From an uncultured Thermotogae bacterium (GTDB lineage: Bacteria; Bipolaricaulota; Bipolaricaulia; UBA7950; UBA9294), in assembly GCA_964466035.1 (NCBI GenBank), contig CAYXLR010000002.1, positions 67,206 through 131,205 on the forward strand: a stretch of DNA of 64,000 nt, given 5' to 3'. How positions within the stretch are numbered: the first letter of the stretch is position 1; each line of letters begins with the position of its first letter. The notes under the pieces were generated by a model. That model was not told where the DNA came from and did not search any database. It saw nothing but the letters and a program-made list of their open reading frames with translations. Positions 17,791 through 61,567 of the stretch are shown one piece after another. Both the position numbers and the translations under genes were made by a program.

Positions 17791-18870
<1,080 letters not shown>

Positions 18871-20750: not shown

Positions 20751-20823
20751 GAAGACCCACCTCCCTCCGTGGCCAGAGGATGAAGCCGGGGGCTGGAGCC
20801 CCCGGCTTCCTTGATGGCTCTGC

Positions 20824-22086: not shown

Positions 22087-22274
22087 GTCTTGCCTCCTTG
22101 GTTACGTTTCCATGGGTGCTTCCCAGCAGTTGGCCATGCTGTCCTTCGTGCGTACCACCTCCCTGTTCGATGTTTGGCATGAATCGGTCGTGGAGAGGCC
22201 GACATCGGTTCTGCGCTGGCGATTCCACGTCGCGCGCTTCGGTTCGCATTGGTCGGCGTCCCTCCGGTGATTCA

Positions 22275-24907: not shown

Positions 24908-24918
24908 TTCGCTTGTGT

Positions 24919-24947
24919 TTGACAGCTGTTACCTTTCGGAATACTAT
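24919..24947 (+). promoter_or_regulatory. Sigma70-type promoter for the galT-like operon
   Basis: TTGACA (24919-24924), a 17-nt spacer, then TACTAT (24942-24947). It lies just upstream of the divergent deoR start. An inverted TGTCAA occurs about 40 nt downstream and could be an operator half-site. Confidence 0.55.
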
Positions 24948-26118: not shown

Positions 26119-26239
26119 CGGATGCGGGGCGGACGACCACCGATGCGATGCGAGAGCGAGTGAGCGGGTCTGCGTTCGCAGGTTCGGACCAGTAAGATCG
26201 AGGCGAGGACCGGACCGGCGGCTCTCGAAGAGGTGGAGC

Positions 26240-43673: not shown

Positions 43674-43677
43674 GGGG

Positions 43678-46600: not shown

Positions 46601-49600
46601 ATCTGTGCGATCCCGACACCGATGGCGACGGGCTGATGGACGGCGAAGAGGAGGGACTGTTCGGTGCCGGGGAGGTGACCCCTACGGGCGTCTCCGCGAC
46701 AGTCGGGGCCGAAGGTGCGAGTCTCGGTGTGACCGTCCCCGCGCTCGATACCGACATGGACAACGACGGGTTGACGGACTACGAAGAGGTCAACGCGTAC
46801 CAGACCGATCCGACGGACGCGGACACCGACAACGATACCGTCTCCGACGGCGACGAAATCGCGACGTGGGACTCCGCCATCGCTGCGCGACTGGGAACGA
46901 CCGCTTCCTCCGACTCTCGAGACCACGCCAATCCTCGGATGGACGACACCGACGGCGACGGCCTGACCGACGACCTCGAGATGGAGTACGGCTGCAATTG
47001 CGGCCCCGGCGGAGGTGCGTCGCGGGATGGCTACGTCAACGACGACGACTCCGACGACGACGGCCTCCAGGACGGCCCCGATTCGCAGCTTCATCTCGCC
47101 ACGTGGGATCCTTCCGACTACGGCAAGGACGTCGATGCTGCCTCCGGAAACGACGGCGAGCTTCACGACGACAGCACGTGCGCGATCTGCGACGAGGACT
47201 CCGACGGCGACGGGTTGCTCGACGGCGAAGAGGTCCAGGTCGGGACGGACCCGCTCGACTGGGACACCGACGACGACGGCCTGTCGGACCGGGAGGAACT
47301 GCAGACCTACTTCACCGATCCGAACGACCCCGACACCGACGGCGACGGAGCGGCGTTGGAGTACGGTGCCACGTGCACCCTGACCGATCGGCCGACGTCC
47401 GTTCCTCTTGCTGGCTACGCCGGAGCGACCGCATCGACGAGCATCACGGTCTCACGCTACGAGCTCGATGGGAACACACCGACGTACACAGACGAGACGC
47501 AATCGGTCGAGTACTACGACGGGGTCACGCTCGGCTCGGACGGAATCGAGGCCGTCAGCCGTGAAGGAGTCTTCCCGTTCGACGATCTTGGGGATCAGTC
47601 CGACCCGCTGCAGAAGGACACCGACGGAGACGGAATTCAGGACGATGTCGAGTTCAAGCCGGGCTGCAACTGCAGCGGGGAAGGCGTGGAATCCGGACGG
47701 GACGGCTACGTCAACGACGACGACTCCGACGACGACGGGCTGCAGGACGGGGCGGAATACGACCGGTTTGGGTCGGACGACGTCGGCGAAGCCGGTGTCC
47801 TGCCCGTGCTCGGAAACGACGGGGAGCTTCACGACGATCCGGTCTGCTCGCTCTGTGATCCGGATTCCGACGGCGATGGGCTCCTCGACGGCGAAGAGAC
47901 GTTCATCGGGACCGATCCGCTCGACTGGGACTCCGACGACGACGGGCTTTCCGATCGCGAGGAGCTGCAAACCTACTTTACCGATCCGAACGACGACGAC
48001 ACGGACGACGACCAGGCCGATGGGAACGTCGCGGCGCGGGATCCGGACACCGCTCCTCTTCTGGACGGATTCGACGGAACGGAGGCGATCCAAGCGCTCT
48101 CGGACTGCGAAGAGGCGCTCAGCGGGACGGCGCATCCGCCGTTCGGGAACTGGTACGACGAGACCGACCCGCTGCAGCGCGACACCGACGGCGACGGCCT
48201 CGGCGACGCGATCGAGTTCAAGGTCGGCTGTAGCTGCTCGACGACGGGCTGGTGCGACTGCCCCGCGGCCCCTTGGACGTACGCCGATCCGAACTACTAC
48301 GGCGTCGTGTACGACCCGATTCGCGACGGCTACGCCAACAGCTCCGACTCGGACGAAGACGGGCTCCGGGACGGCGAGGACGTTTACGAGGATCTCGCAA
48401 AGGCCGACGTCGACTTCCCCGGGAAGGTGTTCACGATTCGAGGCGAGCACTGCACCGACCTACGCCTGCGCGAGCAGCAGGACGACGGGATCCACTCGAT
48501 CTGCGATCGAGATTCCGACGGGGACGGGCTCCTCGACGGCGAGGAATTCGCGATCGGAACCGACTGGCTCGACTGGGACACCGACGACGACGGACGCAAC
48601 GATTGGCACGAGCACACCGGCGGCGAGCAGGTGACGAGCGCGGACCCCATCCCGACGGACCCGTTCGATCCGGACACTGACGACGACGGGCTCCTGGACT
48701 CGGCCGAGGTGTTCGGATTGAACAACACGAACCCTCTCAATGCCGACACCGACGGCGACGGTCTATGCGACGGGGGAACGGGGACGCCGTACATGATGAC
48801 CTGGCCTACCGATCCGACGGTCCACGTCAACCCGATCTGCAAATCGTGCGCCGAGCCGGGCCTCGACGCTTGTGGAACCATCGTACGAGGAGGAAGCGCC
48901 GACGGGATCGGCGATCACCCGAATCCGCACGGATACGGTGAGGACAAGAACGGAAACGGCGCGTGGGATCCCGGAGGGTACGACTACTGGGGCGACGTGT
49001 ACGCCGGCGACGAGACCGATCCGAACCAGTACGACACCGACGGCGACGCGGACGGAGACGGCGTCGAGGTCCTCGGATTCTCGACGTCGCGCCAGAGCTG
49101 GATTCCGGCCACCGACCTGTTCGGTCGGCCGATCACGGTCACGTATCCAGCGTGCGGCTGCATGAATCCGCTCGATCCCGACACCGACGACGACCAGTTG
49201 GAGGACGGATACGAGGACCGGAACCACGACGGGAACTTCGACTTCCTTCCGAGCGAGTTCGATCACGAGGATCCGCTCCCGGGTCCGCCGATTCCGTATC
49301 CGACCGAGACGAACCCGTGCGATCCCGATACGGACGACGACGGGCTGACCGACTACGAGGAGCGCTACCAGTCGCAGGTCTACGTGCGCTACCCGGACCT
49401 CACCCGCCCGTTCAACCCGACGAATCCGCTCGACCACGACACGGACAACGACTGGATCCTCGACGGGCCGGAGGTGTTCTGGGAGTGCGTCGAGCTGGCG
49501 TACTGGACGCTCGACAACGACACCGACGGCCTGACCGACGAGGACCCGATCGACGGGATCGACAACGACGGAGACGGCTTGATCGACGAGGATCCGCAGG

Positions 49601-50142
49601 ACTACTGGATCCGGTTCGTCCCGATGCTCGACCCGACCAACCGCGACTCCGACTCGGACGGGTTCATCGACGGCCTCGACGACGATCCGTGCAACTCGGA
49701 GCTGATTCCGCTCCTGGCGCCGGTTCAGGCCGAGCCGATCGACACCGACGGCGACGGCTTCTCCGACGACGACGAGCTGCTTGCGGGCACCCATCCGAAC
49801 GACCCGGAGGATCATCCGATCCCGTATGTCGGGATGAACCTCGACCTCGACGACTGCTTCGACGACCGTCTGTGGCTCGAACCGACGATGTGCTGCGGAA
49901 TCGCCAACTCGGTGGTCATCGACCTCGACAGCAACGTCCTCGTCGACGTCCGGGTGCAGATCGTGCAGCCCCGCGACGTGCGGGTTGGCGACTACGACGA
50001 GGACGGACACGAGGACGACGCCCGCTACGTCGTCGAGTACGCGTTCGCGCTGTATCGCGTCGTCCAGCGACGGATCGTCGCGACGATCGACGACTTCGAC
50101 ATGGATCTCGTGATCGACGCGGTGAGACTCGACCCGAGATAG
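43678..50142 (+). CDS. Giant secreted/surface protein with N-terminal Ig-like repeats and dozens of thrombospondin-type-3-like Ca-binding repeats, 2154 aa
   Basis: It has a signal/anchor ([21 protein letters not shown]). Repeated Big_3-like modules are present (..TVTITGD..DPSVV..GTV.V.DG.GNTC......W.C.LT...AG.KTITA.Y.GD..F..S). From about residue 800, DxDxDG-type repeats are reiterated (DTDGDGLxDxxE, [10 protein letters not shown]). The start could be 43660. Confidence 0.85.
46360..48640 (+). repeat. Four in-frame modules of about 0.56-0.68 kb inside the giant gene
   Basis: Module heads are at about 46360, 46945, 47617 and 48181 (D.TDGDGL.DD.E....C.C....[18 protein letters not shown]). Each is followed by [24 protein letters not shown]...[28 protein letters not shown]. 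Confidence 0.75.
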
Positions 50143-50539
50143 ACACAGAGGAACGGCACAGAGATCGAGCGCCTCGCTAGTGGCTCCGCGGGGCGCTCGG
50201 CACTTGTAGGGGCGTCGGCCGTCTCCCGAAGGACGGTGGATCGCCTCGGGGAGGAACGGGACGTCGCGCCTCAAGCCGTAGGCGATCGCCTTCCCCAGTG
50301 CCTCGTAGCGATGCACGGGCGGAGGATCCGCGGTCCACGAGCGGCCTCCCACGCTGCGCCCCGGCCCGATCGATGGTGCGTGCGCGTCGTCGAAGGGGTC
50401 CTCACGGTGACGTCCGAAGGGAACGCATTTCCCCTGCGGGGCTCCCCGCGATCCCCCCGCTGCGAGCCGAACTGCGGCTACGCTCGTTTCGTACACAAGC
50501 CGACACGTGTGGATCGATTCTGAGGCAGAGGAGAGTGCG

Positions 50540-51490
50540 ATGAAAAGGGTGTATCTCGTAGGGCCGATCCTGGTTCTGGCTCTGGTTCTGCTGGCTGGCT
50601 GCATGCGCGTTCAGACGCTGGTCGTCACGCCGTTCTCCGGGATCGCGGAGGCAGGGGACACCGTCGCTTTCGCGGCGACGGATCAGCTCGGCAATCCTAT
50701 CGTGGTGACGTGGGCGGTCGACGCCGGGCCCGGCACCATCTCGGCCGCCGGTGTTTATACCGCCCCGGCGACCGTGGCGGAAGTTACGACCGCGAAGATC
50801 ACGGCGACCTACGGGGGTGTGACCGTGGTGACCGGCTCGGCGGTCGTGACGCTCGTCCCGCCTGCGACGGCGAAGATCGTCGATGCGGACGGCGACGCGT
50901 TCGGCCCGGCGACGTACGACGTCCACAGCATCTCGACGGCGCGGACGTCGACGGAACTGACGATCACCGTGGTCTTCGACTCGACGACTCCCCCCGACAT
51001 CCCAGCGGCGAGCGCTGTGGTCGCGGCGGGCGAGCTGGCGGGGTTCATCGACTTCGACACCGACGAGTCGAGCACCACCGGGTTCGCGTCGGCCAACGCG
51101 GCGTTTTGTCCGTGCGCGCCGGTCTCCGCGATCGGCACCGAGCTGTTCATCCCGCTGTTCCAGCGGAACGCGGCGGGCAACTACGAAGTCATTCTGGCGA
51201 CGACGCTCGTGGACGTGGGCGACGCGACGCCCAGCGTCTCGGGAAACGTGCTCACCCTGACGGTTCCCCTCGCGGACCTTAACGGCGACGACGGGATCAC
51301 GAACCTGAGCTCGGTCCTCGGCGACTTCCTCGGCCCGACGGACTGCATGCCGGACGAGGGGGCCGCGGTCACGACCTCGCTCGAGCCCAAGGGGGTCGAG
51401 CCGGAGATCGACCAGATCCACGAGTACTACCTGTGGACGAAGTACAACGAGTTCGAGTGGGGGGTTCAGACCGAGCCGATCACCCTTTAG
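50540..51490 (+). CDS. Lipoprotein with a Big_2-like Ig domain
   Basis: It has a lipobox (LVLLAGC) after MKRVYLVGPILVLA and a Big_2-like segment (TPFSGIAEAGDTVAFAATDQLGNPIVVTWAVDAGPGTISAAGVYTAP). The C-terminal domain is unknown. Confidence 0.7.
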   Translation: MKRVYLVGPILVLALVLLAGCMRVQTLVVTPFSGIAEAGDTVAFAATDQLGNPIVVTWAVDAGPGTISAAGVYTAPATVAEVTTAKITATYGGVTVVTGSAVVTLVPPATAKIVDADGDAFGPATYDVHSISTARTSTELTITVVFDSTTPPDIPAASAVVAAGELAGFIDFDTDESSTTGFASANAAFCPCAPVSAIGTELFIPLFQRNAAGNYEVILATTLVDVGDATPSVSGNVLTLTVPLADLNGDDGITNLSSVLGDFLGPTDCMPDEGAAVTTSLEPKGVEPEIDQIHEYYLWTKYNEFEWGVQTEPITL

Positions 51491-51619
51491 AGGTCAGGGT
51501 CCCCGCGAGCCGAGAGCGAGAGAGGCGCCGGCCCTCCGCTCGGCTTCGCTTTTTCGGCCGCTTTGTGTCGGCCCGACCGGTTTCGATCGCCTCACCTCTG
51601 CCGGTCGGTGGCGCCCGAA

Positions 51620-51649
51620 TTGCGATCCCCTACAGACTTTCCGTATAGT
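51620..51649 (+). promoter_or_regulatory. Candidate sigma70-type promoter for the hydrogenase-metVF operon
   Basis: TTGCGA (51620-51625), an 18-nt spacer, then TATAGT (51644-51649), about 60 nt upstream of the small-subunit ATG. Confidence 0.45.
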
Positions 51650-51711
51650 GGCGTGGAGCCGTTTCCACACGAGAATCGAACGGCGGGTCCGCCTCGAGGG
51701 AGGGTGAGACG

Positions 51712-52572
51712 ATGGCAGAAACTCGGGAGATGCCGGTGATCTGGATCCAGGCCGCCACGTGCAGCGGCTGTTCCGTGTCCGTGCTCAACTCGGCCGCGCC
51801 GAAGATCACGGACCTCCTCCTCAGCGAGGTGATTCCGGGGCGGCACATCAACCTCCGGTTCCAGGCCACGGTGATGGCCGGATCCGGAGAGCCGGCCGTC
51901 GAGGTCCTCGATGCGGCCGCGAAGGGCGATCCCGGAACGTACGTACTGATCGTCGAGGGATCGATCCCGACGAAGGACGGCGGCGTCTACGGGACGCTCG
52001 GCGAGGTGCCGATGGTCGACCGCGTGATCCCGCTCGCCGAGAACGCCGCGGTGATCATCGGGCTCGGGACCTGCGCGTCGTTCGGCGGGATCTTCGCCGC
52101 CGACCCGAATCCCGGGGGCTGTGTCAGCGTCGGCGATCTCCTGAGAGAGAAGGGGATCGATACGCCGTTGATCAACGTCCCCGGCTGCCCGCCGCACCCC
52201 GACTGGTTCGTCGGGACCGTCGCGACGATCCTGGTCGGGGGGGTGTCCGCGGTGAAGGTCGACGAGCTCGGGCGGCCGATCCGCTTCTTCGGGCAGCTGA
52301 TCCACGAGAACTGCCCCCGACGCGCCTACTTCGACGAGGGGAAGTTCGCCAAGCATCTCAGCGACGAGGGCTGTCTGTACGAGCTCGGTTGCAAGGGGAC
52401 GATCACCCACGCCGACTGCCCGCTGCGACGTTGGAACAACGGGACGAACTGGGTGATCGGCAGCGGTGCCCCGTGCAACGGATGCGTCGAGCCGGAGTTC
52501 CCGGACCTGATCTCACCGTTCTACGAGAGGCTCCCGGAAGAGGCCCTTCTGGTGCCGAGGAAGGAGTCCTGA
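51712..52572 (+). CDS. [NiFe]-hydrogenase small subunit without a Tat signal
   Basis: The N-terminus VIWIQAATCSGCS starts at residue 9. It carries GTCASFGG, PGCPP, HENCPRR, and CLYELGCKG...CPLRRWN...PCNGC Fe-S ligand blocks. There is no RRxF leader and no C-terminal anchor. Confidence 0.9.
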   Translation: MAETREMPVIWIQAATCSGCSVSVLNSAAPKITDLLLSEVIPGRHINLRFQATVMAGSGEPAVEVLDAAAKGDPGTYVLIVEGSIPTKDGGVYGTLGEVPMVDRVIPLAENAAVIIGLGTCASFGGIFAADPNPGGCVSVGDLLREKGIDTPLINVPGCPPHPDWFVGTVATILVGGVSAVKVDELGRPIRFFGQLIHENCPRRAYFDEGKFAKHLSDEGCLYELGCKGTITHADCPLRRWNNGTNWVIGSGAPCNGCVEPEFPDLISPFYERLPEEALLVPRKES

Positions 52573-52574
52573 CC

Positions 52575-54110
52575 ATGCGGACGATCGTCATCGATCCGGT
52601 CACTCGGATCGAAGGGCACCTGAAGATCGAAGCGACCGTCGACGACGGCGTCGTCGTGGAGGCGCGGAGCACGGGGACGCTGTTCCGCGGCATCGAGCTG
52701 ATCCTTCAGGGGCGAGACCCTCGCGACGCCCCTCGGATCACCCAGCGGATCTGCGGCGTCTGCCCGACGGCGCACGCGACGGCGTCGACGTTCGCGCTCG
52801 ACGAGGCGTTCGGGATCGCCGATCGGATCCCGGCGAACGGTCGGATCCTCCGCAACCTCATCCTCGGCTGCAACTTCATCCAGTCCCACGTCCTGCACTT
52901 CTACCACCTGGCGGCGCTCGACTACGTCGACGTGACGGCCGTCGCCGGGTATGAGGGGACCGACCCCGGCCTCCTCGCGGCGAAGGCGTTCCTCGGCCGC
53001 GGCGAGCTCGGGCCGTTCGTCCCCCGGTACGAGGGGGACTATCGCTTCCCGACCGACGTCGCGCAGCGGCTGGCGTCGCACTACGTGCAGGCGTTCGACG
53101 TCCGGCGGAAGGCGCACGAGCTCCTGGCGGTGTTCGGCGGGAAGATGCCGCACAACGTCGGGATCGTCCCCGGCGGGGTGACGCAGGTCCCCGAGGTCGA
53201 CACGATCGCCGGCTTCCTATGGCGGCTAAACGAGATTCGTCATTTTATCGATCACGTGTACGTCCCCGACGTGCTCGAGGTCGCCCGCGCCTACGGCGAC
53301 TACGCCGAGGTCGGCGGCGGTTGCGGGAGCTTCATCAGCTACGGGGGGTTCCCTCTCGAGAACGGCCGCTTCCTCGGCTCGGGGACGATCGCGATGGACC
53401 TCGCTCCGGAAGAGATCGGCGTCGGGAAGATCACCGAGTCGGTCCAGCATGCGTGGCTGGCGAGCGAGCGGGATCCACTGCATCCGTCGGAGGGCGTGAC
53501 GGTGCCCGATCCGTCCAAGGAGGGCGCTTACTCGTGGATCAAGGCCCCCCGCTACGACGGCGACGTGTACGAGGGCGGGCCGCTGGCGCGGATGCTCCTC
53601 GGGTATGCGCGCGGGATCGAACCGATCGTGGCGCTCGTCGATCGGGTGCTGGGCGCGCTCGATGCCGGTCCGGCGGCGCTGAACTCGGCCCTCGGACGCC
53701 ACGCGGCGCGCGCGGTCGAGTGCAAGGTCGTCGCCGACGCGATGGCCGACTGGGTCCTCGACCTCGTGCCGGGCGGCGAGGTCTACGCGCCGTACGAGAT
53801 CCCCGACGAAGGAGAAGGGGCCGGGCTGACCGCCGCCCCCCGAGGGGCGCTCGGCCACTGGGTCCGGCTGAAGGACGGAGCCATCGACCACTACCAGTGC
53901 GTCGTTCCGACGACGTGGAACGCGTCTCCGAAGGACGAGCAGGGGAAGCCGGGTCCGATCGAACAGGCGATCGCCGGGACGCCGATCGCGGACGAGGAGA
54001 ATCCGTTCGAGATCGTCCGGATCGTTCGCTCGTTCGATCCGTGTTTGGCCTGCGCCGTCCACCTGATCACGCCCCGAGGCAGAACGCTGGGGCGGTACGT
54101 GGTGAGCTAG
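52575..54110 (+). CDS. [NiFe]-hydrogenase large subunit, 511 aa
   Basis: It has RIEGH, the N-terminal CxxC (RICGVCPTAH) and the C-terminal CxxC (DPCLACAVH), followed by a 15-aa extension that is the expected protease substrate. It starts 2 nt after the small-subunit stop. Confidence 0.9.
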   Translation: MRTIVIDPVTRIEGHLKIEATVDDGVVVEARSTGTLFRGIELILQGRDPRDAPRITQRICGVCPTAHATASTFALDEAFGIADRIPANGRILRNLILGCNFIQSHVLHFYHLAALDYVDVTAVAGYEGTDPGLLAAKAFLGRGELGPFVPRYEGDYRFPTDVAQRLASHYVQAFDVRRKAHELLAVFGGKMPHNVGIVPGGVTQVPEVDTIAGFLWRLNEIRHFIDHVYVPDVLEVARAYGDYAEVGGGCGSFISYGGFPLENGRFLGSGTIAMDLAPEEIGVGKITESVQHAWLASERDPLHPSEGVTVPDPSKEGAYSWIKAPRYDGDVYEGGPLARMLLGYARGIEPIVALVDRVLGALDAGPAALNSALGRHAARAVECKVVADAMADWVLDLVPGGEVYAPYEIPDEGEGAGLTAAPRGALGHWVRLKDGAIDHYQCVVPTTWNASPKDEQGKPGPIEQAIAGTPIADEENPFEIVRIVRSFDPCLACAVHLITPRGRTLGRYVVS

Positions 54111-54118
54111 GAGGCGCG

Positions 54119-54577
54119 ATGAGAACCGCGATCGTCGGCGTCGGGAACGGCCTGATGAGGGACGAGGGGATCGGCGTTCACGTCGCCCGCGCGATGGCGA
54201 ACGCGGAGCTTCCCGAGGGCGTCCTGGTGGTCGACGCGGGGACCGATCCGGACGTCGCGTTCGACCTCGACGGATACGAACGCGTGATCGTCGTCGACGC
54301 GGTCCTTGGCGGAGGGACGCCGGGCACGGTGTATCGGTTCGGCGACGAGGTCGAATTCGACGCGTCCGGCGCCCGAAGGGCGAGCCACGACGTGAGGCTG
54401 TTGGAGACGCTCCGCGCGGTCGGACTGCCGGGGGAGGACCCGGAGATCGTCGTGATCGGGGTCGAACCGGAGAAGATCGATTGGGGGCTCGACCTGTCAC
54501 CGATCGTCGAGGCGTCGGTCCCGAGGGTCGTAGAGATCGTGAGACAGGAGATCAGGCGGAACGACAGGAGGTCCTAG
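54119..54577 (+). CDS. Hydrogenase maturation endopeptidase (HybD/HoxW family)
   Basis: It has the N-terminus IVGVGNGLMRDEGIG and is about 150 aa. GGAGG lies upstream. Confidence 0.85.
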   Translation: MRTAIVGVGNGLMRDEGIGVHVARAMANAELPEGVLVVDAGTDPDVAFDLDGYERVIVVDAVLGGGTPGTVYRFGDEVEFDASGARRASHDVRLLETLRAVGLPGEDPEIVVIGVEPEKIDWGLDLSPIVEASVPRVVEIVRQEIRRNDRRS

Positions 54578-55273
54578 ATGCTCGTGACCGAACGAAAACC
54601 GATCGACGAGATCGTCGGATTCCTCGCCGGAGAGCGCTCGGTCTTCCTCCTCGGCTGCGACGGGTGCGCGGCCGCCTCCGGCACGGGCGGGGAGCCGGAG
54701 ATCCTCGAGTTGAAGGAGGAGCTGGAGGCACACGGTACCGAGGTCGTCGGCTGGAAGGTCCTCGACTTCCTCTGCCAGAAGGCGCTGATCCGGACCAGCC
54801 TGAGGCCGTACGCGGAGACGCTGGAACGCGCCGATTCCGTCGTCGTCTCGACGTGCGGGATCGGCATCCAGGCGTCGGCGACGGTGATCGATAAGGCCGT
54901 GCATCCGGCGTGCAACACGGTCTCCCTCGGCGGGATCCGTGGCGAGTGGCAGGGCGAGGAGCGGTGCGCCGAGTGCGGGCAGTGCTTCCTCGAGTTCACT
55001 GCGGGAATCTGTCCGTTGACCGCCTGCGCGAAGGGGCTCGTCAACGGGCCGTGCGGCGGCGCGAAGGACGGACGGTGCGAGGTCGAGCCCGAGGTTCGGC
55101 GGTGCGCGTGGGACGTCATCTACGAGCGACTCGAGAGGCAGGGGCGGCTCGATTTGCTCCGTCGCAGTCCGGTGCAAGTCAAGGACCACGCGAGAATGCG
55201 GCCGCCGAGCGCGATCCGGGGGACCCGGACGTGGGCGATCGACATGAAGACAGCAGAGGACGCGACCTCATGA
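54578..55273 (+). CDS. metV: Methylenetetrahydrofolate reductase-associated Fe-S subunit (MetV, MTHFR_C domain)
   Basis: It is Cys-rich (GCDGCAA, STCGIG, CAECGQC, ICPLTACAKGLVNGPCGG). The ATG directly abuts the protease stop (TAGATG). Confidence 0.8.
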   Translation: MLVTERKPIDEIVGFLAGERSVFLLGCDGCAAASGTGGEPEILELKEELEAHGTEVVGWKVLDFLCQKALIRTSLRPYAETLERADSVVVSTCGIGIQASATVIDKAVHPACNTVSLGGIRGEWQGEERCAECGQCFLEFTAGICPLTACAKGLVNGPCGGAKDGRCEVEPEVRRCAWDVIYERLERQGRLDLLRRSPVQVKDHARMRPPSAIRGTRTWAIDMKTAEDATS

Positions 55274-56136
55274 AACTGACCGATCTGTTCCGTGCCGGCA
55301 AGTTCGTCGTCACCTCCGAGGTCGCCCCTCCGAAGGGAACCGAGACCGCGGAGATGATCGAGAACGCGGAGCGGCTGAAGCCGCGCGTCGACGCGATCAA
55401 CATCACCGATCAGCAATCGTCGGTGATGCGCCTCGGGTCGTTGGCCGCGTCGCGGATGCTGAAGGAGCGCGGGATCGAGCCCGTGTTCCAGGCGACGTGC
55501 CGCGACCGCAATCGGATCGCGCTGCAGTCCGATTTGCTCTCCGCGTGGGCGCTGGGGATCGAGAACGTCCTCTGCCTGACCGGCGATCACGTCACGCTCG
55601 GCGACTTTCCGGACGCGAAGGCCGTCTTCGACCTTGACTCGGTGTCGCTCCTCGCCGCGGCGAAAGGGCTCAATCAAGGGAGCGACATGGGCGGCAACGA
55701 GCTCGCGGGGAGTCCCGACTTCTGCCTCGGCGCCGTCGTCACGCCGGGTGCCGACCCGGTCGAGCTCCAGTTGATCAAAATGGGGAAGAAGATCGCCGCG
55801 GGAGCGACGTTCTTCCAAACCCAGGCGGTCTTCGATCCGGAGGCGTTCGCCCGGTTCATGGAAGGGGCGAAGGGGTTCGGCGTCCCGGTGATGGCCGGGA
55901 TCATCCTCCTCAAGTCGCCCGGCATGGCGCGGTTCATGAACCAGAACGTCGCCGGCGTTTCCGTGCCCGACGGGCTGATCGACGAGATGGCGGACGCGGG
56001 CGACCGCCCGGCGAAGTCGGTCGAGATCGCCGCGCGGCTGGCCCGCGACGTCAAGGATCTCTGCCAAGGAGTGCACATCATGCCGCTCGGCTGGGAGAAG
56101 CGCGTCCCCGAGGTGCTGGAGGCCGCGGGGCTGTAG
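55270..56136 (+). CDS. metF: Methylenetetrahydrofolate reductase
   Basis: MTHFR TIM-barrel text is present (FVVTSEVAPPKG, INITDQ, ATCRDRNRIALQSDLL, FFQTQAVFD). The ATG overlaps the metV stop (ATGA). Confidence 0.9.
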   Translation: MKLTDLFRAGKFVVTSEVAPPKGTETAEMIENAERLKPRVDAINITDQQSSVMRLGSLAASRMLKERGIEPVFQATCRDRNRIALQSDLLSAWALGIENVLCLTGDHVTLGDFPDAKAVFDLDSVSLLAAAKGLNQGSDMGGNELAGSPDFCLGAVVTPGADPVELQLIKMGKKIAAGATFFQTQAVFDPEAFARFMEGAKGFGVPVMAGIILLKSPGMARFMNQNVAGVSVPDGLIDEMADAGDRPAKSVEIAARLARDVKDLCQGVHIMPLGWEKRVPEVLEAAGL

Positions 56137-56186
56137 CGGGCGAAGCGTCAGAGCGTACTCTCGTTGTGTTGCCGGCGCCGGTGCCG

Positions 56187-56900
56187 TCACGAGGGTCGGT
56201 GCGGAGCCCGTGCGTTGCCGGGGACGTGGCGATAGGAGCAGTCGAGCCGTGGGCACCCTTCGCAGGAGAACGGATGCTTCGCTTGCGTGACCCGCTCGCC
56301 GATCCCGATGACGAACGACACGCTCTTCGACGGCCGCATCAACAGGTGGGGCGTGAGCCGGACGCCGAGCGGATCCCTCGGCAGGTGGGCGAAGACGAGG
56401 CGCTGGTTTTCCAGCTCCCAGCCGCTCGCCCCCGCGCCCGGAGAGAACGCGCGGCTTGCGGACAGACCGCGCTCCTCGGCCCAGTCGAAGACGGCGCAGC
56501 CGAGGCGGTCGCTGATCTGAGACAGGGCGGTCATCGCGATCGCGTCGAGGATCATCGAGTCGATCAGCTCGCCCTTCCGAGATAACGTGCGGGCGTGCTC
56601 TTCGATCGCCCGCCCCGCCGTGCACAGCCCGAAGCAGAGAAACCGGGCTTTCCGAATCGGCGTCGGCAATGCGTCGATCTCCGCGTTCGAAAGCGATCTT
56701 GCGGCGACGTGGTGTCCGATACCCCGCGGTCGGATCAGCGATCGGCCGATCGGAATGGATTCCCGCACCCGTCCCTCGACGATCGCCGATCGGGAGAAGC
56801 CACCGCGCTCGAGCGTCGGCCAGACGGCATCCGCTCCGAGGTCGACGTCCGCGCCGTCGAGGTCGAAACGGCCTACGAGGGGACCGTCATGCTCCGCCAT
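56187..56900 (-). CDS. Stand-alone methionine-synthase activation-domain-like protein (Met_synt_B12 family)
   Basis: The block FSPGAGASGWELENQRLVFAHL...VRLTPHLLMRPSKSVSFVIGIG matches the conserved core of the MetH reactivation domain. The start is taken at MAEHDG (56900). Confidence 0.7.
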   Translation of the reverse strand: MAEHDGPLVGRFDLDGADVDLGADAVWPTLERGGFSRSAIVEGRVRESIPIGRSLIRPRGIGHHVAARSLSNAEIDALPTPIRKARFLCFGLCTAGRAIEEHARTLSRKGELIDSMILDAIAMTALSQISDRLGCAVFDWAEERGLSASRAFSPGAGASGWELENQRLVFAHLPRDPLGVRLTPHLLMRPSKSVSFVIGIGERVTQAKHPFSCEGCPRLDCSYRHVPGNARAPHRPS

Positions 56901-57093
56901 GCTTCCTCCCCTCCTCGCGGTCGCCGAGGCACGCGAGCGCAAGGAGACAGAATCCAGGATTGTGATGATTGAATCCAGTGGTGGTCGGTTGCACGCATCG
57001 CCCAAGTGAGTGCCGGAGCCGCGGCCGGCGCTCCTTGCTCTGCCCGAGGGCCGACACTACGATGAACGGAGCCACTCCAAGGGAAGGAGAAAC

Positions 57094-57891
57094 ATGTTCT
57101 TGGTCGTAGGGGAGCTGATCAACTCGACGAGGAAGCGGGTCGGGCAGGCGATCGCCGACCGGAACGAGGCGCACATTCGCGACCTCGCCCGACGTCAGCA
57201 CGAGGCCGGAGCGGACGTCATCGACCTCAATGCGGGCCAATCGATGGATCGGGAGCTCGACGATCTTCTCTGGCTCATCGAGGTGGTCGAGGAGGATCTC
57301 GGCCCCGACGTGCGGCTCGGGATCGACACGTCGGATCCTCACGTGATGGAGAAGGCGATCCGCCAGTGCTCCGGGCCTCCGCTGATGAACTCGGTCAGCA
57401 ACGAGCCGTCGAAGCTTCCGCTCCTCGGGATCGCCGCGGACTGCGACTGCGACGTCGTCGGCCTGGCGATGGGCGAGGCCGGCATGCCGAAGACCGCCGA
57501 CGACCGGGTCCGCGAAGCCGTGGCGCTCGTCGAGAAGTGCGAGACGGCGGGCGTGGCCCGCGAAAGGCTCTACGTCGATCTGATCTGCATGTCGGTCGCC
57601 AGCTCGCCGGAGCAGGGTCGGGAGGTGCTCGAGGCGCTCCGGCGGGTCCAGGGGGAGCTGTCGGTCAAGCCGCTCGTCGCGGTGAGCAACGTGTCGTTCG
57701 GGCTTCCGAATCGACGGCTCTTGAACCGGACGTTCCTCGGGATGCTGATCGAGGCCGGCCTCGTCGGCGCGATCCTCGATCCGACCGACCCGGGGATCTC
57801 GGAGACGATCTGCGCGGCTCGGGCGCTCCTCGGGACGGACGAGTACTGCATGGACTACATCCGGCACCATCGCGCGACGTCTCAGGCGTAG
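57094..57891 (+). CDS. Methyltetrahydrofolate:corrinoid methyltransferase (pterin-binding domain, AcsE/MetH-like)
   Basis: GGAAGGAG lies upstream. The sequence MFLVVGELINSTRKRV...GADVIDLNAG...NVSFGLP is typical of the pterin-binding barrel. Confidence 0.8.
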   Translation: MFLVVGELINSTRKRVGQAIADRNEAHIRDLARRQHEAGADVIDLNAGQSMDRELDDLLWLIEVVEEDLGPDVRLGIDTSDPHVMEKAIRQCSGPPLMNSVSNEPSKLPLLGIAADCDCDVVGLAMGEAGMPKTADDRVREAVALVEKCETAGVARERLYVDLICMSVASSPEQGREVLEALRRVQGELSVKPLVAVSNVSFGLPNRRLLNRTFLGMLIEAGLVGAILDPTDPGISETICAARALLGTDEYCMDYIRHHRATSQA

Positions 57892-57910
57892 GCGAGCGGG
57901 GGGATTCGGG

Positions 57911-59734
57911 ATGACGGAGGAATCCGGTAAGGATCGGCGCGGCACGGAAAGCGAGATCGTGCTCGTTCCGGACGGCGTGTCGCTGCGCGGTTCGCCCGGC
58001 TCGACGCTCCTTCAGGTCCTTCAAGAGAACGGCGTGCCGATCGCCGGCTCGTGCGGCGGGCAGGGAACGTGCGGCGAGTGCAGGGTCCGATTCGTGGGAC
58101 GCGCCCCGGAGCCGACGCCGAGCGATCTCGACCTTCTCGATCCCGGTTCGATCGCCGCCGGATGGCGGCTTGCCTGCGCCCACGCGGTGCAGGGAACGGT
58201 GAGAATCGAGGTTCGCGCGCCGGACGGCGATCTCGATCAGAAGGCGCAAGGCGACGCACGGGCTCCGGAGGGCGAACTCGATCCGGCCGTAACGTCGCGA
58301 ATCGTCGACGTGGCGAACCGGTCGCGGGAGGACCGGCGCCCGCTCGCGGAGCGGCTCGGGGAGGCGCGTTCCGGCGAGCCGCGGATCCCCCTCCACGTCC
58401 TTCAGCGACTGGCGAGCGCGCAGCGTACTGGGCCGCTGACCGTGATCGAGGCGGAGTGCGGGATTCTCGACGTGATCGCCGGACGGGTCGGTTCGGTCCA
58501 CGGTCTCGCGATCGACATCGGGACGACGACCCTCGCGGTCTACCTGTTCGATCTCGAGACGGGCCGCCAGCTCGGCGTTGCGGCGTCGAGGAACCCGCAG
58601 CAGCGGTTCGGCGCGGACGTGATCTCCCGGATCGCGCACGTGCGCCGGACGAAGGGCGAGGGGCTGACGGAGCTTCACGCGTCCGCGGTCGAAGGCCTGA
58701 ACGGGTTGATCTCCCGGATCGCGGGGGAGGCGTCCGTCTCGCCCGAGGTGATCTACCAGGCCACGGCCGTCGGCAATCCGACGATGCTTCACCTTCTCTT
58801 GGGGATCGATCCGAGGGGAATCGACGTGAGTCCGTACGTCCCCGTCTTCCGTCACGGGGTACGCTGTTCCGCGGGGGACATCGGCCTCGCCATCGCCCCG
58901 CGCGGCGTCGTGGAGACCCTCCCCGCGGTCTCGGCCTACGTCGGGGCCGACATCGTCGCGGGGATCCTCGCGACGGATCTGGAGGGAAGAGAAGGGAGCA
59001 CGCTCTTCCTCGACGTCGGGACGAACGGCGAGATCGTCCTCGCGCTCGACGGGCGGTTGATCGCCTGTTCGACCGCCGCGGGCCCCGCGTTCGAGGGCGC
59101 GTCGATCGTCCAGGGGATGGCCGCGCTCGACGGGGCGATCGAATCCGTTCGGGTGGTGGACGGGCACGTCGAGTGCACAGCGATCGGCGGCGCGCAGCTG
59201 GTCGGGCTCTGCGGGACCGGCCTGGTCTCCGCGGTCGCCGAGCTTTACGCGGCGGGCGTCATCGAACCGTCGGGGCGGTTCCGCGATCCCGGATCACCGC
59301 TGGCGGATCGTCTCGAGGGGATGCGGAAGGATCGTCGGTTCCGCCTGACGGACGGTGCAGCGGTCTACCTGCATCAGAGCGACGTCCGCGAGTTCCAGTT
59401 GGCCAAAGCGGCCGTCCGCGCCGGCATCGAGGTTCTCCTTCGGGGGGCCGGTCTGCCGGCGGAGAAGCTCGATCGTGTGCTCATCGGAGGAGCGTTCTCG
59501 GCCCGGCTGTCCGGCGAGCACTTGACGCGGACCGGACTTCTCCCGGAGATCGATCCTTCCCGCATCCACGTCGTGGGGAACACGGCCGGGTGGGGGGCGA
59601 AGCGCGTCCTCCTGAACCGCCGTCTGACCGCCGACGCGAAGCGGCTCGCGCGATCCGTAGAGTACGTCGAGCTTTCTGCCGACCGGAGCTTCCGCGACCT
59701 GTACGTCGCGCAGATCCCGTTTCCCGACGGGTGA
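57911..59734 (+). CDS. Corrinoid reductive activase-like protein (2Fe-2S ferredoxin plus ASKHA/DUF4445)
   Basis: The N-terminus has SCGGQGTCGECRV, a plant-type 2Fe-2S motif. ASKHA phosphate motifs are DIGTTTLAVYLFD and LDVGTNGEIVL. Confidence 0.8.
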   Translation: MTEESGKDRRGTESEIVLVPDGVSLRGSPGSTLLQVLQENGVPIAGSCGGQGTCGECRVRFVGRAPEPTPSDLDLLDPGSIAAGWRLACAHAVQGTVRIEVRAPDGDLDQKAQGDARAPEGELDPAVTSRIVDVANRSREDRRPLAERLGEARSGEPRIPLHVLQRLASAQRTGPLTVIEAECGILDVIAGRVGSVHGLAIDIGTTTLAVYLFDLETGRQLGVAASRNPQQRFGADVISRIAHVRRTKGEGLTELHASAVEGLNGLISRIAGEASVSPEVIYQATAVGNPTMLHLLLGIDPRGIDVSPYVPVFRHGVRCSAGDIGLAIAPRGVVETLPAVSAYVGADIVAGILATDLEGREGSTLFLDVGTNGEIVLALDGRLIACSTAAGPAFEGASIVQGMAALDGAIESVRVVDGHVECTAIGGAQLVGLCGTGLVSAVAELYAAGVIEPSGRFRDPGSPLADRLEGMRKDRRFRLTDGAAVYLHQSDVREFQLAKAAVRAGIEVLLRGAGLPAEKLDRVLIGGAFSARLSGEHLTRTGLLPEIDPSRIHVVGNTAGWGAKRVLLNRRLTADAKRLARSVEYVELSADRSFRDLYVAQIPFPDG

Positions 59735-59773
59735 GGCGCCGTTTCCTCGGCGAAACGTGTCGAAGTGGGTGGA

Positions 59774-60562
59774 TCAGTCGGCGCGCCGAACGAGCGACGG
59801 GAGGACGTAGGTCGTTCCGAGCTCCGGATGCTCGCCGACGACGGCGTCGACGCCGAAGACGCGGCGGACGTTCGCCTGCGTGAGGACCTCGTTCGGCGTC
59901 CCGCTCACGACGATCCGGCCGTCGCTCATCAGGGCGATCCGATCGGTCGCCTGCGCGGCGAGCGTCAGGTCGTGGATCGCGATCAGGACGGTCATCCCCG
60001 CCCTCGCTTGTTCCCGGACGATCGACATGAATCCGACCTGATGCCGGAGGTCGAGGTGCGTCGTCGGCTCGTCGAGGAGGAGGACGTTCGGCTCCTGGGC
60101 GAGGGCCATCCCGAGGAAGACGCGCTGGCGCTCGCCGCCGGAGACGGCGCGGATCGAGCGGTCGGCGAGCCCGTGGATGTCGGCGAGGTCCATCGCGCGC
60201 TCGATCGCCCTGCGATCGTCGCGCGACTCGCGCGCGAACCGCCCGCGGTGCGGAATCCGGCCCATCGCGACGACCTCTCGGACGGTGAAGTCGAACCCCA
60301 TCGGTCGTTCCTGCTCGACCATCGCGAGGCAGCGGGCGCGTTGCCTCGCCGACAGCGCGACGAGCGGCGACGCGTCGAGGCGGACGGTTCCGCTGTCCGG
60401 CCGAAGGACGCCCGAGACGACCTTCAGAAGCGTGCTCTTCCCGGAGCCGTTCGGGCCGATCAGCGCGACCGACTCCCCGCTCCGGACGTCGAGCCGGACG
60501 CCGCGCAGCGCCGGCGTCCGGCCGTCGTACGCGAACGAGACGCTCCGAACTTCGACGCGCAT
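59774..60562 (-). CDS. ABC ATP-binding protein, iron-chelate/cobalamin type (FecE/BtuD-like)
   Basis: Walker A is GPNGSGKST, the signature is SGGERQRV and Walker B is LLLDEPT. The ATG overlaps the permease stop. Confidence 0.85.
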   Translation of the reverse strand: MRVEVRSVSFAYDGRTPALRGVRLDVRSGESVALIGPNGSGKSTLLKVVSGVLRPDSGTVRLDASPLVALSARQRARCLAMVEQERPMGFDFTVREVVAMGRIPHRGRFARESRDDRRAIERAMDLADIHGLADRSIRAVSGGERQRVFLGMALAQEPNVLLLDEPTTHLDLRHQVGFMSIVREQARAGMTVLIAIHDLTLAAQATDRIALMSDGRIVVSGTPNEVLTQANVRRVFGVDAVVGEHPELGTTYVLPSLVRRAD

Positions 60563-61566
60563 CAGAGCCGCGCTCCTCGTGTCTTCAGCAGGTAGAGGAA
60601 GAACGGGGCGCCGAGAAACGCCGTGATCACCCCGACCGGCAGCTCGGCCGGCGCGAGGACCGTCCGTGCGGCCACGTCGGACCAGACGAGGAAGCACCCT
60701 CCGGCGAGGGCCGAAACCGGAATCAGCCGCCGGTGATCCGGTCCGACGAGCAGCCGCATCACGTGCGGGATGACCAGCCCGATGAAGCCGATCGTCCCCG
60801 CCATCGCGACGGCAGCGGCGGTCAGGGCCGTCGTCAGCACGAGGAGCCACCGGTACAGCGCGTCCGGGTTGACCCCGACGTGGAACGCGCCCTCCTCGCC
60901 GAGGGAGAGCGCGTTCAGATCGCGCGCGAGCACGATGACGCCGCCGATTCCGACGGCGACGATCGGCGCGAGGACCGCGACGGACGGCCAGCCGGCCCTG
61001 CCGAGCCCGCCCATGATCCAGAACAACACGTCGGACAGCTTCTCCCCGCCGGAGCTGAGGAAGATCAGGAAGCTGGTGACGGCGGAGAAGAGCGCCCCCA
61101 CGGCGACCCCGGCGAGGATCAGGGTGAAGATCGACGTCCGGCGGTCCCGTCCCCGGGCGAGCCCGTAGACGATGGCGACGGCCGCCGCGGCCCCGACGAA
61201 CGCCCCCAGAGGTAGGAGGAAGGCCGATCCCGTTGCGAAGAGGATCGCGAGCGCCGCGCCGGTCGACGCCCCGCTCGCGATCCCGAGGACGTACGGACTG
61301 GCGAGCGGGTTCCGGAACAGCCCCTGCATCGCGACGCCGGAGACGGCGAGCGCCGACCCGACGAGCAGGCCGAGCAGGACACGCGGGAGGCGGATCTGTC
61401 GGACGATCACGCGATGGACCGTCGAGACGGTCTCGTCGCCGAGGAGTCCCGCGAAGGCGTCGCGGACCGGGATCGTCACCGGTCCGATCACGATCCCTGC
61501 GAGAAGCGAGAGAACCGCGAGGACGGCGAGCCCGAACAGGATCCATCGTCCGCGTCGCCGGCCCAT
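60562..61566 (-). CDS. FecCD/BtuC-family ABC permease
   Basis: It is a 334-aa polytopic protein with family text such as RLPRVLLGLLVGSALAVSG and LPVGVITAFLGAPFFLYLL. Confidence 0.85.
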   Translation of the reverse strand: MGRRRGRWILFGLAVLAVLSLLAGIVIGPVTIPVRDAFAGLLGDETVSTVHRVIVRQIRLPRVLLGLLVGSALAVSGVAMQGLFRNPLASPYVLGIASGASTGAALAILFATGSAFLLPLGAFVGAAAAVAIVYGLARGRDRRTSIFTLILAGVAVGALFSAVTSFLIFLSSGGEKLSDVLFWIMGGLGRAGWPSVAVLAPIVAVGIGGVIVLARDLNALSLGEEGAFHVGVNPDALYRWLLVLTTALTAAAVAMAGTIGFIGLVIPHVMRLLVGPDHRRLIPVSALAGGCFLVWSDVAARTVLAPAELPVGVITAFLGAPFFLYLLKTRGARL

Positions 61567-61567
61567 G

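Follow-up and report, generated by a model that had tools for sequence, protein, structure and literature searches.

A Tat-less [NiFe]-hydrogenase encoded in one tight operon with MetVF, recurring in uncultured species from roughly ten phyla

We analyzed a stretch of 64,000 nucleotides (hereafter the window) of contig CAYXLR010000002.1 from the assembly GCA_964466035.1 of an uncultured bacterium of the Bipolaricaulota lineage. Five genes run head to tail on the forward strand at 51712-56136, encoding a [NiFe]-hydrogenase small subunit, its large subunit, the maturation protease, MetV and MetF, and all five are in frame. The features of this region are as follows.

51620-51649 (+): promoter-like site (TTGCGA, 18-nt spacer, TATAGT) ahead of hydS.
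51712-52572 (+): hydS, [NiFe]-hydrogenase small subunit, 286 aa, without Tat leader or C-terminal anchor.
52575-54110 (+): hydL, [NiFe]-hydrogenase large subunit, 511 aa.
54119-54577 (+): hydrogenase maturation endopeptidase (HycI/HybD family), 152 aa.
54578-55273 (+): metV, Cys-rich Fe-S subunit of MetVF-type methylene-THF reductase, 231 aa.
55270-56136 (+): metF, methylene-THF reductase catalytic subunit, 288 aa.
56187-56900 (-): opposite-strand ORF of 237 aa with no family match, separating metF from the methyltransferase gene and probably not part of the module.
57094-57891 (+): AcsE-like methyl-THF:corrinoid/Fe-S protein methyltransferase, the next step of the methyl branch after MetF.
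57911-59734 (+): RACo/AcsV-like reductive activator of corrinoid proteins (2Fe-2S ferredoxin domain plus ASKHA ATPase).
59774-62440 (-): Btu/Fec-type ABC importer (ATPase, FecCD permease and periplasmic binding protein), probably for cobalamin or a metal chelate.

Profile searches with Pfam and NCBIfam confirmed the identity of each of the five genes: Oxidored_q6 plus NiFe_hyd_SSU_C for hydS, NiFeSe_Hases (PF00374) at 505 bits and NF033181 at 683 bits against a cut-off of 600 for hydL, HycI / TIGR00072 at 129.5 bits against a cut-off of 47 for the protease, PF12225 at 104 bits for metV and PF02219 at 130 bits for metF. The downstream methyltransferase matched Pterin_bind and scored 257.6 bits to NF005719, just under its cut-off of 259. 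The importer was placed from gene calls and Pfam matches for the locus L003, mapped to the window by adding 52177, and the same trio follows the module in another of the surveyed loci, L089. In contrast, a tblastn search (E <= 1e-8) found the opposite-strand ORF in no locus from another species, and only same-sequence metagenome contigs were matched.

The junctions are those described in the original prediction, namely a 2-nt gap between hydS and hydL (TGA-CC-ATG), an 8-nt gap between hydL and the protease (TAG-GAGGCGCG-ATG), directly abutting codons between the protease and metV (TAGATG), and a 4-nt ATGA overlap between metV and metF. Two small corrections are, however, needed. First, the small subunit starts at 51712 and not at 51620, the start coordinate originally given, which falls in the promoter-like site. 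This site is preceded by a terminator-like hairpin at 51527-51544 and is the only one of its kind in 50000-60500, where shuffled sequences give a mean of 0.4, although it represents a consensus match only. Second, the GGAGG originally placed within the 8-nt gap uses the last G of the hydL stop codon and is thus not wholly inside the gap. An RBS, GGGAGGG, precedes the hydS ATG.

We next analyzed whether the individual subunits are intact. In HydL, the Ni-Fe ligand motifs RICGVC (58-63) and DPCLACAVH (488-496) are present, the latter followed by a 15-aa C-terminal extension after His496. All 11 ligands of the three HydS clusters are present (C17, C20, C121 and C159 for the proximal [4Fe4S]; C236, C255 and C258 for the medial [3Fe4S]; H198, C201, C221 and C227 for the distal [4Fe4S] cluster) and are conserved at 0.98-1.00 in 43 linked homologues. 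Similarly, eleven Cys of MetV are invariant and a twelfth is 93% conserved in the linked homologues, and the MetF residues aligned with E. coli Glu28 and Asp120, which are probably catalytic, are kept (E17 and D105).

To ascertain the cellular location of the hydrogenase, we compared HydS with the 317-aa D. vulgaris [NiFeSe] precursor. Residue 7 of HydS aligns to residue 42 of this precursor and to residue 8 of the 283-aa mature chain, indicating that the small subunit starts where the mature periplasmic protein starts, 6 residues before the conserved PV(I/F)W. The upstream frame is closed by a stop upstream of 51649 and holds no start codon before 51712, so that no Tat leader is possible. The C-terminal anchor is also absent, as the protein ends at position 310 of the 365-position TIGR00391 model. 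Moreover, no cytochrome b, diaphorase, Hdr or MvhD gene, and no acceptor of the cytochrome c3 or HybA/HybB type, was found in the operon or within about 8 kb on either side, and no RnfC gene was found in the region of the window scanned. The cytoplasmic location and the lack of a partner gene in the operon, both part of the original prediction, are confirmed.

By sequence, the hydrogenase is a Group 1 enzyme. Using the subgroups to which the solved structures probably belong, the best matches of the large subunit were group 1a at 436 bits and group 1b at 410-415 bits, followed by 1e (362), 1c (334), 1d (329), 2a Huc (219), 1h (163) and 3c Mvh (128), whereby MvhA matches residues 4-118 only, at 116-128 bits. 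The closest solved relative is the periplasmic [NiFeSe] enzyme of group 1a. Accordingly, the hydrogenase does not group with sensory enzymes.

In order to determine how widespread this arrangement is, we scanned one genome per species and kept 80 loci. The same order recurs in 45 of these 80 species-level loci, in uncultured species from roughly ten phyla, which is far beyond chance, and most gaps are about -30 to +70 nt in most of 45 other species. Of 44 assessable Tat-less small subunits, 43 have metV directly adjacent and the 44th has it within 4.3 kb, whereas none of the 28 Tat-bearing relatives, all of which have RRxFLK, sits beside metV (Fisher p = 4e-19, not corrected for phylogeny). 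No close relative from a cultured isolate was found. In four loci (L045, L052, L073 and L080) metVF lies between hydL and the hydrogenase protease, which is hard to explain unless metVF belongs to the hydrogenase operon. Furthermore, MetV stays next to the hydrogenase even where the MetF partner is a divergent type at 39-47% identity, which fits MetV being the docking subunit. The neighbours are Wood-Ljungdahl genes, with FolD in 11 loci, Fhs in 9, FdhA in 10, NuoF-like in 11, AcsC in 8, AcsB in 7, CooC in 7 and AcsE in 8, and a complete Bipolaricaulota genome carries fhs | hydSL-hycI-metVF | folD.

Taken together, these results support the original prediction of an H2-linked methylene-THF reductase module and suggest, with moderate confidence and as an inference from genomes alone, a model in which the five genes encode a soluble, cytoplasmic H2:methylene-tetrahydrofolate oxidoreductase, that is, a MetVF-type reductase whose electron-input module is a Tat-less Group 1 [NiFe]-hydrogenase in place of RnfC2 or HdrABC-MvhD. 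In the proposed path, H2 is split at the Ni-Fe site of HydL, and electrons pass through the proximal, medial and His-ligated distal clusters of HydS to the Fe-S clusters of MetV and the flavin of MetF, which reduces methylene-THF to methyl-THF, while the AcsE-like methyltransferase encoded downstream takes the methyl group onward and the protease only matures HydL. That the four proteins form one complex, that the distal cluster hands electrons to MetV and that the physiological direction is H2 uptake are inferred. In described MetVF enzymes, MetV is the Fe-S subunit that accepts electrons from a variable partner (PMC8760232). We calculate that the reaction from H2 to methylene-THF is downhill, at -41 kJ/mol standard and still about -13 kJ/mol at 1 Pa H2 (from -414 and -200 mV, the latter value cited in PMC8760232). 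On the other hand, no clade-specific docking signature was found in HydS, where only one position separates linked from Tat-type small subunits, and the hydrogenase-linked MetV copies share the same Cys pattern as other MetV copies. A non-bifurcating H2-driven step would also dissipate the most exergonic reaction of the pathway. In addition, some relatives embed a cNMP-binding histidine kinase or a GltD-HdrA-like protein in the cluster, so that the complex may be larger or differently wired in those lineages, and, as the tree backbone is unresolved (bootstrap values of 30 or less), a single origin of the linked clade is not shown.

A possible, though less likely, alternative is that the hydrogenase and MetVF are merely co-transcribed as members of a Wood-Ljungdahl regulon, with electrons travelling through a soluble carrier (flavodoxin, rubredoxin, thioredoxin-like protein or ferredoxin) or through subunits encoded elsewhere, such as HdrA/MvhD. 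In line with this, purified type II MetVF enzymes accept electrons from reduced ferredoxin in vitro (PMC8760232), other Bipolaricaulota carry metVF next to hdrA and mvhD (PMC9586279), six relatives have a GltD-HdrA-like gene in the same cluster, and no hydrogenase-specific feature was found in MetV or HydS. However, the coupling of Tat loss with metV adjacency and the location of metVF between hydL and its protease go beyond what co-regulation predicts, a simple Group 1 enzyme cannot, on thermodynamic grounds, reduce low-potential ferredoxin with H2 without coupling, and no carrier gene is conserved in the clusters.

It appears doubtful that the same complex works in the opposite direction, oxidizing methyl-THF and releasing H2 during syntrophic acetate or methyl-group oxidation at very low H2; H2 release from methyl-group oxidation was also raised as an option in the original prediction. 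This is the reading given for the one published case, 'Ca. Syntrophonatronum acetioxidans' (PMC6295475), the [NiFeSe] enzymes, as the closest solved relatives, are probably good H2 producers, and a methyltransferase, RACo and a cobalamin-type importer lie next to the operon. Nevertheless, the reaction is uphill by +41 kJ/mol standard and, by our calculation, requires pH2 below about 6e-8 bar (roughly 0.006 Pa) at equal folate concentrations, far below the 1-10 Pa likely to be typical of anoxic sediments, and relatives place the module among CO2-reducing genes (fdh, fhs, folD, acs). The reductive direction is thus much more plausible.

Equally unlikely, yet not excluded, is an Hdr-independent, flavin-based electron-bifurcating enzyme catalyzing 2 H2 + methylene-THF + oxidised ferredoxin -> methyl-THF + reduced ferredoxin, an analogue of Mvh-Hdr in which the most exergonic step of the Wood-Ljungdahl pathway would pay for low-potential electrons in energy-starved subsurface bacteria. 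Such a reaction would solve the energetic waste of a linear H2-driven step, bifurcation by MetVF has long been hypothesised (PMC8760232), and the arrangement is common in energy-starved subsurface lineages. However, there is no HdrA, NuoF-type or EtfAB-type bifurcating flavoprotein in the operon and no ferredoxin-binding subunit, and purified type II MetVF enzymes show uncoupled ferredoxin oxidation and no bifurcation (PMC8760232). An independent and similarly improbable reading is that the cytoplasmic clade is the ancestral state from which a Tat-exported 'hydL-protease-hydS' clade arose, as the NJ tree nests that clade inside the linked group, with weak support.

Finally, an H2 sensor regulating metVF or the Wood-Ljungdahl genes in the manner of HoxBC/HupUV is very unlikely, for although the enzyme is cytoplasmic and has no respiratory partner, a cNMP-binding histidine kinase lies inside the cluster in about 8-11 Chloroflexota and Fraserbacteria relatives, and the L038 and L040 large subunits lack the C-terminal extension, the window enzyme keeps this extension and its own endopeptidase, has Val62 and Leu112 at the two gas-channel positions where H2 sensors are expected to carry Ile and Phe, is far closer to group 1a/1b than to any group 2 structure, and has no kinase in the window operon, nor is there one in most linked loci.

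Among known systems, the periplasmic group 1a/1b uptake hydrogenases (D. vulgaris Hildenborough [NiFeSe] and D. vulgaris Miyazaki F [NiFe]) are the best sequence matches among solved structures for both subunits and have the same Ni-Fe ligand motifs, the same three-cluster layout with a His-ligated distal cluster, and a large subunit with a C-terminal extension and a dedicated endopeptidase. In contrast, the enzyme described here has no Tat signal and no periplasmic or membrane acceptor, carries Cys instead of Sec at the active site, has Val in place of the extra medial-cluster Cys of the [NiFeSe] enzymes, so that a [3Fe4S] medial cluster is expected, and is followed by metVF. In MvhAGD-HdrABC (group 3c) and the MetVF-HdrABC-MvhD complex of Moorella and Sporomusa, a cytoplasmic hydrogenase or Hdr module likewise feeds an exergonic C1 or heterodisulfide reduction, but no MvhD or HdrA was found here. 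H2-dependent methylene-THF reduction has been measured in S. ovata membranes (PMC9430772), where the H2 route runs through a periplasmic, cytochrome b-linked hydrogenase and quinone.

The one mention that we found in the literature is a passing remark on a single MAG, 'Ca. Syntrophonatronum acetioxidans' (Timmers et al. 2018, PMC6295475), in which a signal-less large and small subunit pair, '[NiFe] hydrogenase 2', lies next to a second metF and may belong to this family. The authors called the enzyme 'group 5' and tentatively linked it to H2 metabolism, reading it as H2 production or regulation, and made no survey, MetV link or Tat correlation. The logic proposed here is analogous to that of the hydrogen-dependent CO2 reductase (HDCR) of Acetobacterium woodii and Thermoanaerobacter kivui, in which a hydrogenase appears to be wired through Fe-S subunits directly to a Wood-Ljungdahl reductase so that H2 is used without a soluble carrier, although HDCR uses an [FeFe]-hydrogenase, HycB-type subunits and a formate dehydrogenase, the proteins are unrelated, and a different step of the pathway is catalyzed.

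As in the MetVF-type methylene-THF reductases of types II-IV (MetVF alone, MetVF-RnfC2 and MetVF-HdrABC-MvhD; Öppinger et al. 2021, PMC8760232), MetF and MetV are adjacent and overlapping, MetV has the conserved Cys set, and the role is in the methyl branch of the Wood-Ljungdahl pathway; by NCBIfam, MetF scores 240 bits to the reductase half of a bifunctional homocysteine methyltransferase/MTHFR model and only 36-72 bits to the MetF equivalog models, including that of E. coli. The partner module is, however, a complete [NiFe]-hydrogenase, which none of the four described types has, suggesting a fifth partner type for MetVF reductases in which the implied donor is H2 itself and not NADH or reduced ferredoxin, and which probably feeds H2 electrons directly into CO2 fixation by a route not yet described biochemically.

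Because the window is GC-rich (about 0.58-0.71), six-frame ORF lists are noisy, and we made use of codon-position GC, which picks out one clear gene series on the + strand. Translation and profile searches identified five genes in this series, which are listed below together with the sites preceding them:
51527-51544, terminator-like hairpin
51620, promoter-like site (TTGCGA-18-TATAGT)
51712-52572, + strand, hydS, 286 aa (Oxidored_q6 plus NiFe_hyd_SSU_C)
52575-54110, + strand, hydL, 511 aa (NiFeSe_Hases at 505 bits, and NCBIfam NF033181 at 683 bits against a cut-off of 600)
54119-54577, + strand, HycI/HybD-family endopeptidase
54578-55273, + strand, metV (PF12225)
55270-56136, + strand, metF (PF02219)

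The observation was confirmed, and the junctions are exactly as described in the original prediction, namely TGA-CC-ATG, TAG-GAGGCGCG-ATG, TAGATG and an ATGA overlap. Two details differ, however. Coordinate 51620, which had been taken as the beginning of the region, is not the start of the small subunit but the promoter-like site, which follows the terminator-like hairpin, and the GGAGG motif before the protease, which had been placed within the 8-nt gap, borrows the last G of the hydL stop codon.

By sequence, the hydrogenase is a Group-1 enzyme. The best matches among solved structures for both subunits are the periplasmic [NiFeSe] hydrogenase of D. vulgaris Hildenborough (large subunit 436 bits) and then the standard Desulfovibrio [NiFe] enzymes (about 410 bits), followed by A. 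vinosum (362), E. coli Hyd-2 (334) and Hyd-1 (329), whereas Huc (219), an enzyme presumably of group 1h (163) and MvhA (128 bits, N-terminal 118 residues only) are far behind. The active-site motifs RICGVC and DPCLACAVH are present, with Cys rather than Sec, a 15-residue C-terminal extension follows the last His, and a dedicated protease gene follows the large subunit, as in enzymes that undergo normal maturation. The small subunit keeps all ligands of the proximal (C17, C20, C121, C159), distal (H198, C201, C221, C227) and medial (C236, C255, C258) clusters. The extra medial Cys of the [NiFeSe] enzymes is Val here, so that a [3Fe4S] medial cluster is expected.

Next, we analyzed the likely location of the enzyme. 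Residue 7 of the small subunit aligns with residue 42 of the 317-aa D. vulgaris precursor and with residue 8 of the mature chain, and the reading frame is closed upstream, with no earlier start codon; a Tat leader therefore cannot be encoded. In addition, the protein ends at position 310 of the 365-position TIGR00391 model, and its tail, PEFPDLISPFYERLPEEALLVPRKES, is not hydrophobic. The enzyme should accordingly be cytoplasmic and soluble.

No cytochrome b, diaphorase, HdrA or MvhD gene lies in the surrounding 8 kb. The flanking features are as follows:
43660-50142, 2160-aa ORF with a Big_3_5 Ig-like domain and TSP3 calcium-binding repeats, directly upstream of the region, probably a surface or secreted protein
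50540-51490, + strand, unclassifiable 316-aa ORF upstream of the module
56187-56900, - strand, unclassifiable ORF downstream of the module
further downstream, an AcsE-like methyl-THF:corrinoid methyltransferase, a RACo/AcsV-like corrinoid activator and a Btu/Fec-type ABC importer

The two unclassifiable ORFs have no Pfam match and no meaningful NCBIfam match (one at E 0.037, 13 bits), and tblastn found them in no other species' locus; we treat them as outside the module. Rfam and tRNA scans of the window found nothing. A weak DUF4443 hit suggested an archaeal origin, which was rejected because the neighbours are bacterial (DeoR, MacB/FtsX, one-piece GuaA) and the closest named relatives are Bipolaricaulia. 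Elsewhere in the window, positions 1-12000 have a lower GC content (0.58-0.59, against 0.62-0.71 elsewhere) and carry four genes on the - strand, a DEAD/Helicase_C protein (2196-4511), a BrxC/BrxD-like ATPase (4408-5757), a TerB_N/TerB/TerB_C protein (5726-7981) and an SF1 helicase with an RNase_H_2 domain (8400-11831), which look like an acquired defence island. At 25859-30228, a fused HAD-hydrolase/trehalose-phosphatase gene is followed by a GH65 phosphorylase gene, with a sugar ABC transporter, glucokinase, PGI-like and 6-phosphogluconolactonase-like genes nearby (12020-24928), in what looks like a trehalose/maltose utilisation region.

To ascertain whether the linkage is conserved, we aligned ten diverse large subunits and scanned one genome per GTDB species with this alignment. 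More than 594 stretches matched, and the best 80 loci (designated by L numbers) were kept. Using tblastn with the window proteins, we found the order hydS-hydL-(protease)-metV-metF in 45 of the 80, with most intergenic gaps lying between about -30 and +70 nt. The exact window proteins occur on metagenome contigs from JGI and Logan assemblies, and the closest named relatives are Candidatus Bipolaricaulia MAGs, with 81% identity for the large subunit and the same gene order in one locus (L007). By their record titles, although MAG labels can be wrong, the linked loci belong to Bipolaricaulia, Fraserbacteria, Chloroflexota (Anaerolineae and many Dehalococcoidia), Aerophobetes, Spirochaetota, Planctomycetota (Phycisphaerae, Pirellulales), Desulfotignum, Hebobacteria, Actinomycetota and Omnitrophota. 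The closest relatives are all from MAGs or metagenomes; likewise, the relatives of the Desulfotignum-MAG enzyme carry MAG names or no name at all, and none is from an isolate. In four loci the order is hydS-hydL-metV-metF-protease, such that metVF sits between the hydrogenase structural genes and the hydrogenase's own maturation gene, and in an uncultured Pirellulales genome (L050, 10007-11560) MetV and MetF are fused in one 518-aa ORF.

For every locus, we then read the in-frame sequence upstream of the small-subunit match. Among the assessable loci, 43 Tat-less small subunits have MetV adjacent and one does not, whereas none of the 28 Tat-bearing small subunits has MetV adjacent. These Tat-bearing relatives carry a classic RRxFLK leader, while the metVF-linked small subunits lack one, usually with no room for it. 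The single exception, L008, has metV 4.3 kb downstream. Fisher's exact test gives p = 4e-19, although the species are not independent and this value is descriptive only.

We further clustered all ORFs of the linked loci and ran Pfam on representatives. The recurrent neighbours are Wood-Ljungdahl genes, as summarised below.

Recurrent neighbours of the linked loci, with the number of loci:
FolD, 11
Fhs, 9
FdhA-like, 10
NuoF-like, 11
NuoE-like, 9
AcsC/CdhD, 8
AcsB, 7
CooC, 7
AcsE, 8
DUF3786, 5

In a complete Bipolaricaulota chromosome (CP070725.1, locus L089), the order is NuoF-like, Fer4, FdhA-like, CooS, an unknown gene, fhs (-), hydS, hydL, hycI, metV, metF, folD (-), and then the same ABC importer as in the window. 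The hydrogenase therefore sits between the three folate enzymes of the methyl branch. In this chromosome, a second, smaller [NiFe] hydrogenase (437-aa large subunit, 255-aa small subunit; L089 18547-21527) lies 7 kb from the module, and its FAD/NAD-binding partner subunit is fused to a response-regulator receiver domain.

In about 8-11 Chloroflexota and Fraserbacteria relatives, a histidine kinase with an N-terminal cNMP-binding domain is embedded in the hyd-metVF cluster (for example L009 7673-9556, L008 9964-11883, L014 8073-9239, L016 10729-11910 and L027 11642-12784). In the loci examined it directly precedes a divergent 'type B' MetF (39-47% identity to the window MetF), and the three Anaerolineae/Chloroflexota loci of this group (L009, L011, L012) lack a nearby protease gene. 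Six relatives carry a protein of about 1330 aa that fuses a GltD-like NAD(P)H/FAD module with an HdrA-like module; in L009 (23-4015), L011, L012, L016 and L017 it lies next to a second MetV copy directly preceding the hydrogenase small subunit, which may represent a larger NAD(P)H/H2/MetVF assembly in Anaerolineae. The module may thus be wired differently in those lineages. Moreover, two linked large subunits (L038 1546-3057; L040 3445-4947) end exactly at the His of DPCxxCxxH, with no C-terminal extension and no protease nearby, and two others (L074 and L086, around 9480) have Gln in place of that His.

With regard to the reductase half, MetF aligns over its whole length with E. coli MetF and keeps the residues at positions Glu28 and Asp120, which are E17 and D105 in the window protein. 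By NCBIfam, it scores 240 bits to the reductase half of a bifunctional homocysteine methyltransferase/MTHFR model, and only 36-72 bits to the MetF equivalog models, including that of E. coli. MetV has eleven invariant Cys and a twelfth that is 93% conserved across 43 linked homologues. Its AF2 model is confident (pLDDT 83.7, pTM 0.82), with a predicted N-terminal alpha/beta domain (residues 1-116) and a Cys-rich C-terminal part; however, no sequence match and no significant fold match was found in the PDB (best match E 6e-3 and TM 0.32, to generic Rossmann-like domains), and the fold gave no clue about docking. Similarly, comparison of 45 linked with 28 Tat-type small subunits gave only one discriminating position, and no docking signature was found. 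Where genomes carry a second MetV copy, for example next to a GltD-HdrA-like gene, the Cys pattern is the same, and MetV therefore looks like a generic Fe-S adaptor. In a Dehalococcoidia subclade, in which the adjacent MetF is a divergent type at 39-47% identity, MetV still follows the hydrogenase; the constant link is hydrogenase to MetV.

We also built a bootstrapped NJ tree, rooted with E. coli HyaB and HybC and a distant hydrogenase. It puts all linked enzymes together with one Tat-bearing 'hydL-protease-hydS' clade at bootstrap 26, the backbone being unresolved, and we claim neither a single origin nor an ancestral state.

Taken together, these results support the original prediction of an H2-linked methylene-THF reductase module as a candidate, and with moderate confidence we favour, by inference from genomes alone, a direct H2:methylene-THF oxidoreductase, in which a Group-1 hydrogenase has been made cytoplasmic and joined to MetVF. 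In the model we propose, the path would run from H2 to the Ni-Fe site, through the three HydS clusters, into the MetV clusters, on to the MetF flavin, and finally to methylene-THF. Using E0' values of -414 mV for H+/H2 and -200 mV for methylene/methyl-THF (the latter cited in PMC8760232), we calculated a standard free-energy change of -41 kJ/mol, about -18 kJ/mol at 10 Pa H2 and about -13 kJ/mol at 1 Pa, with equilibrium near 6e-8 bar. The reductive direction therefore works at any realistic H2 level, whereas H2 evolution from methyl-THF would need extraordinarily low H2. A linear enzyme would, however, conserve nothing from the most exergonic step of the pathway, and this cost is the main argument for the alternatives in which a soluble carrier, an extra subunit or electron bifurcation is involved.

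The electron donor of MetVF-type methylene-THF reductases is a long-standing open question in acetogen bioenergetics; four enzyme types are recognised, and the donor of two of them is disputed (PMC8760232). A fifth type with a complete hydrogenase as its input module would name H2 itself as the donor and would be the methyl-branch counterpart of the hydrogen-dependent CO2 reductase. It would also explain how Bipolaricaulota, Dehalococcoidia, Anaerolineae, Planctomycetota, Actinomycetota, Omnitrophota and others could run this step at H2 levels too low to make NADH: at 1 Pa H2 the H+/H2 couple sits near -266 mV, which is too positive to make NADH, and we infer that a direct link would let the step run where NADH-dependent enzymes could not. 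Our survey also shows that a 'periplasmic' hydrogenase class has a large branch that should be cytoplasmic, which automated annotation would misread as respiratory uptake.

The only mention we found of a signal-less [NiFe] hydrogenase beside metF, in a full-text literature search that did not extend to most subscription journals, is a remark on one MAG, 'Ca. Syntrophonatronum acetioxidans', whose enzyme the authors labelled 'group 5' and for which they suggested regulation or H2 production (PMC6295475). The 2021 classification of acetogen methylene-THF reductases lists MetF alone, MetVF, MetVF-RnfC2 and MetVF-HdrABC-MvhD, and calls the donor of type II unresolved (PMC8760232). Bipolaricaulota from Oman were described with metVF beside hdrA and mvhD (PMC9586279), and marine Chloroflexi with hdrABC-mvhD-metVF (PMC5736913). 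H2-dependent methylene-THF reduction has been measured in Sporomusa ovata membranes, where it runs through a periplasmic hydrogenase, quinone and the Hdr-type enzyme (PMC9430772).
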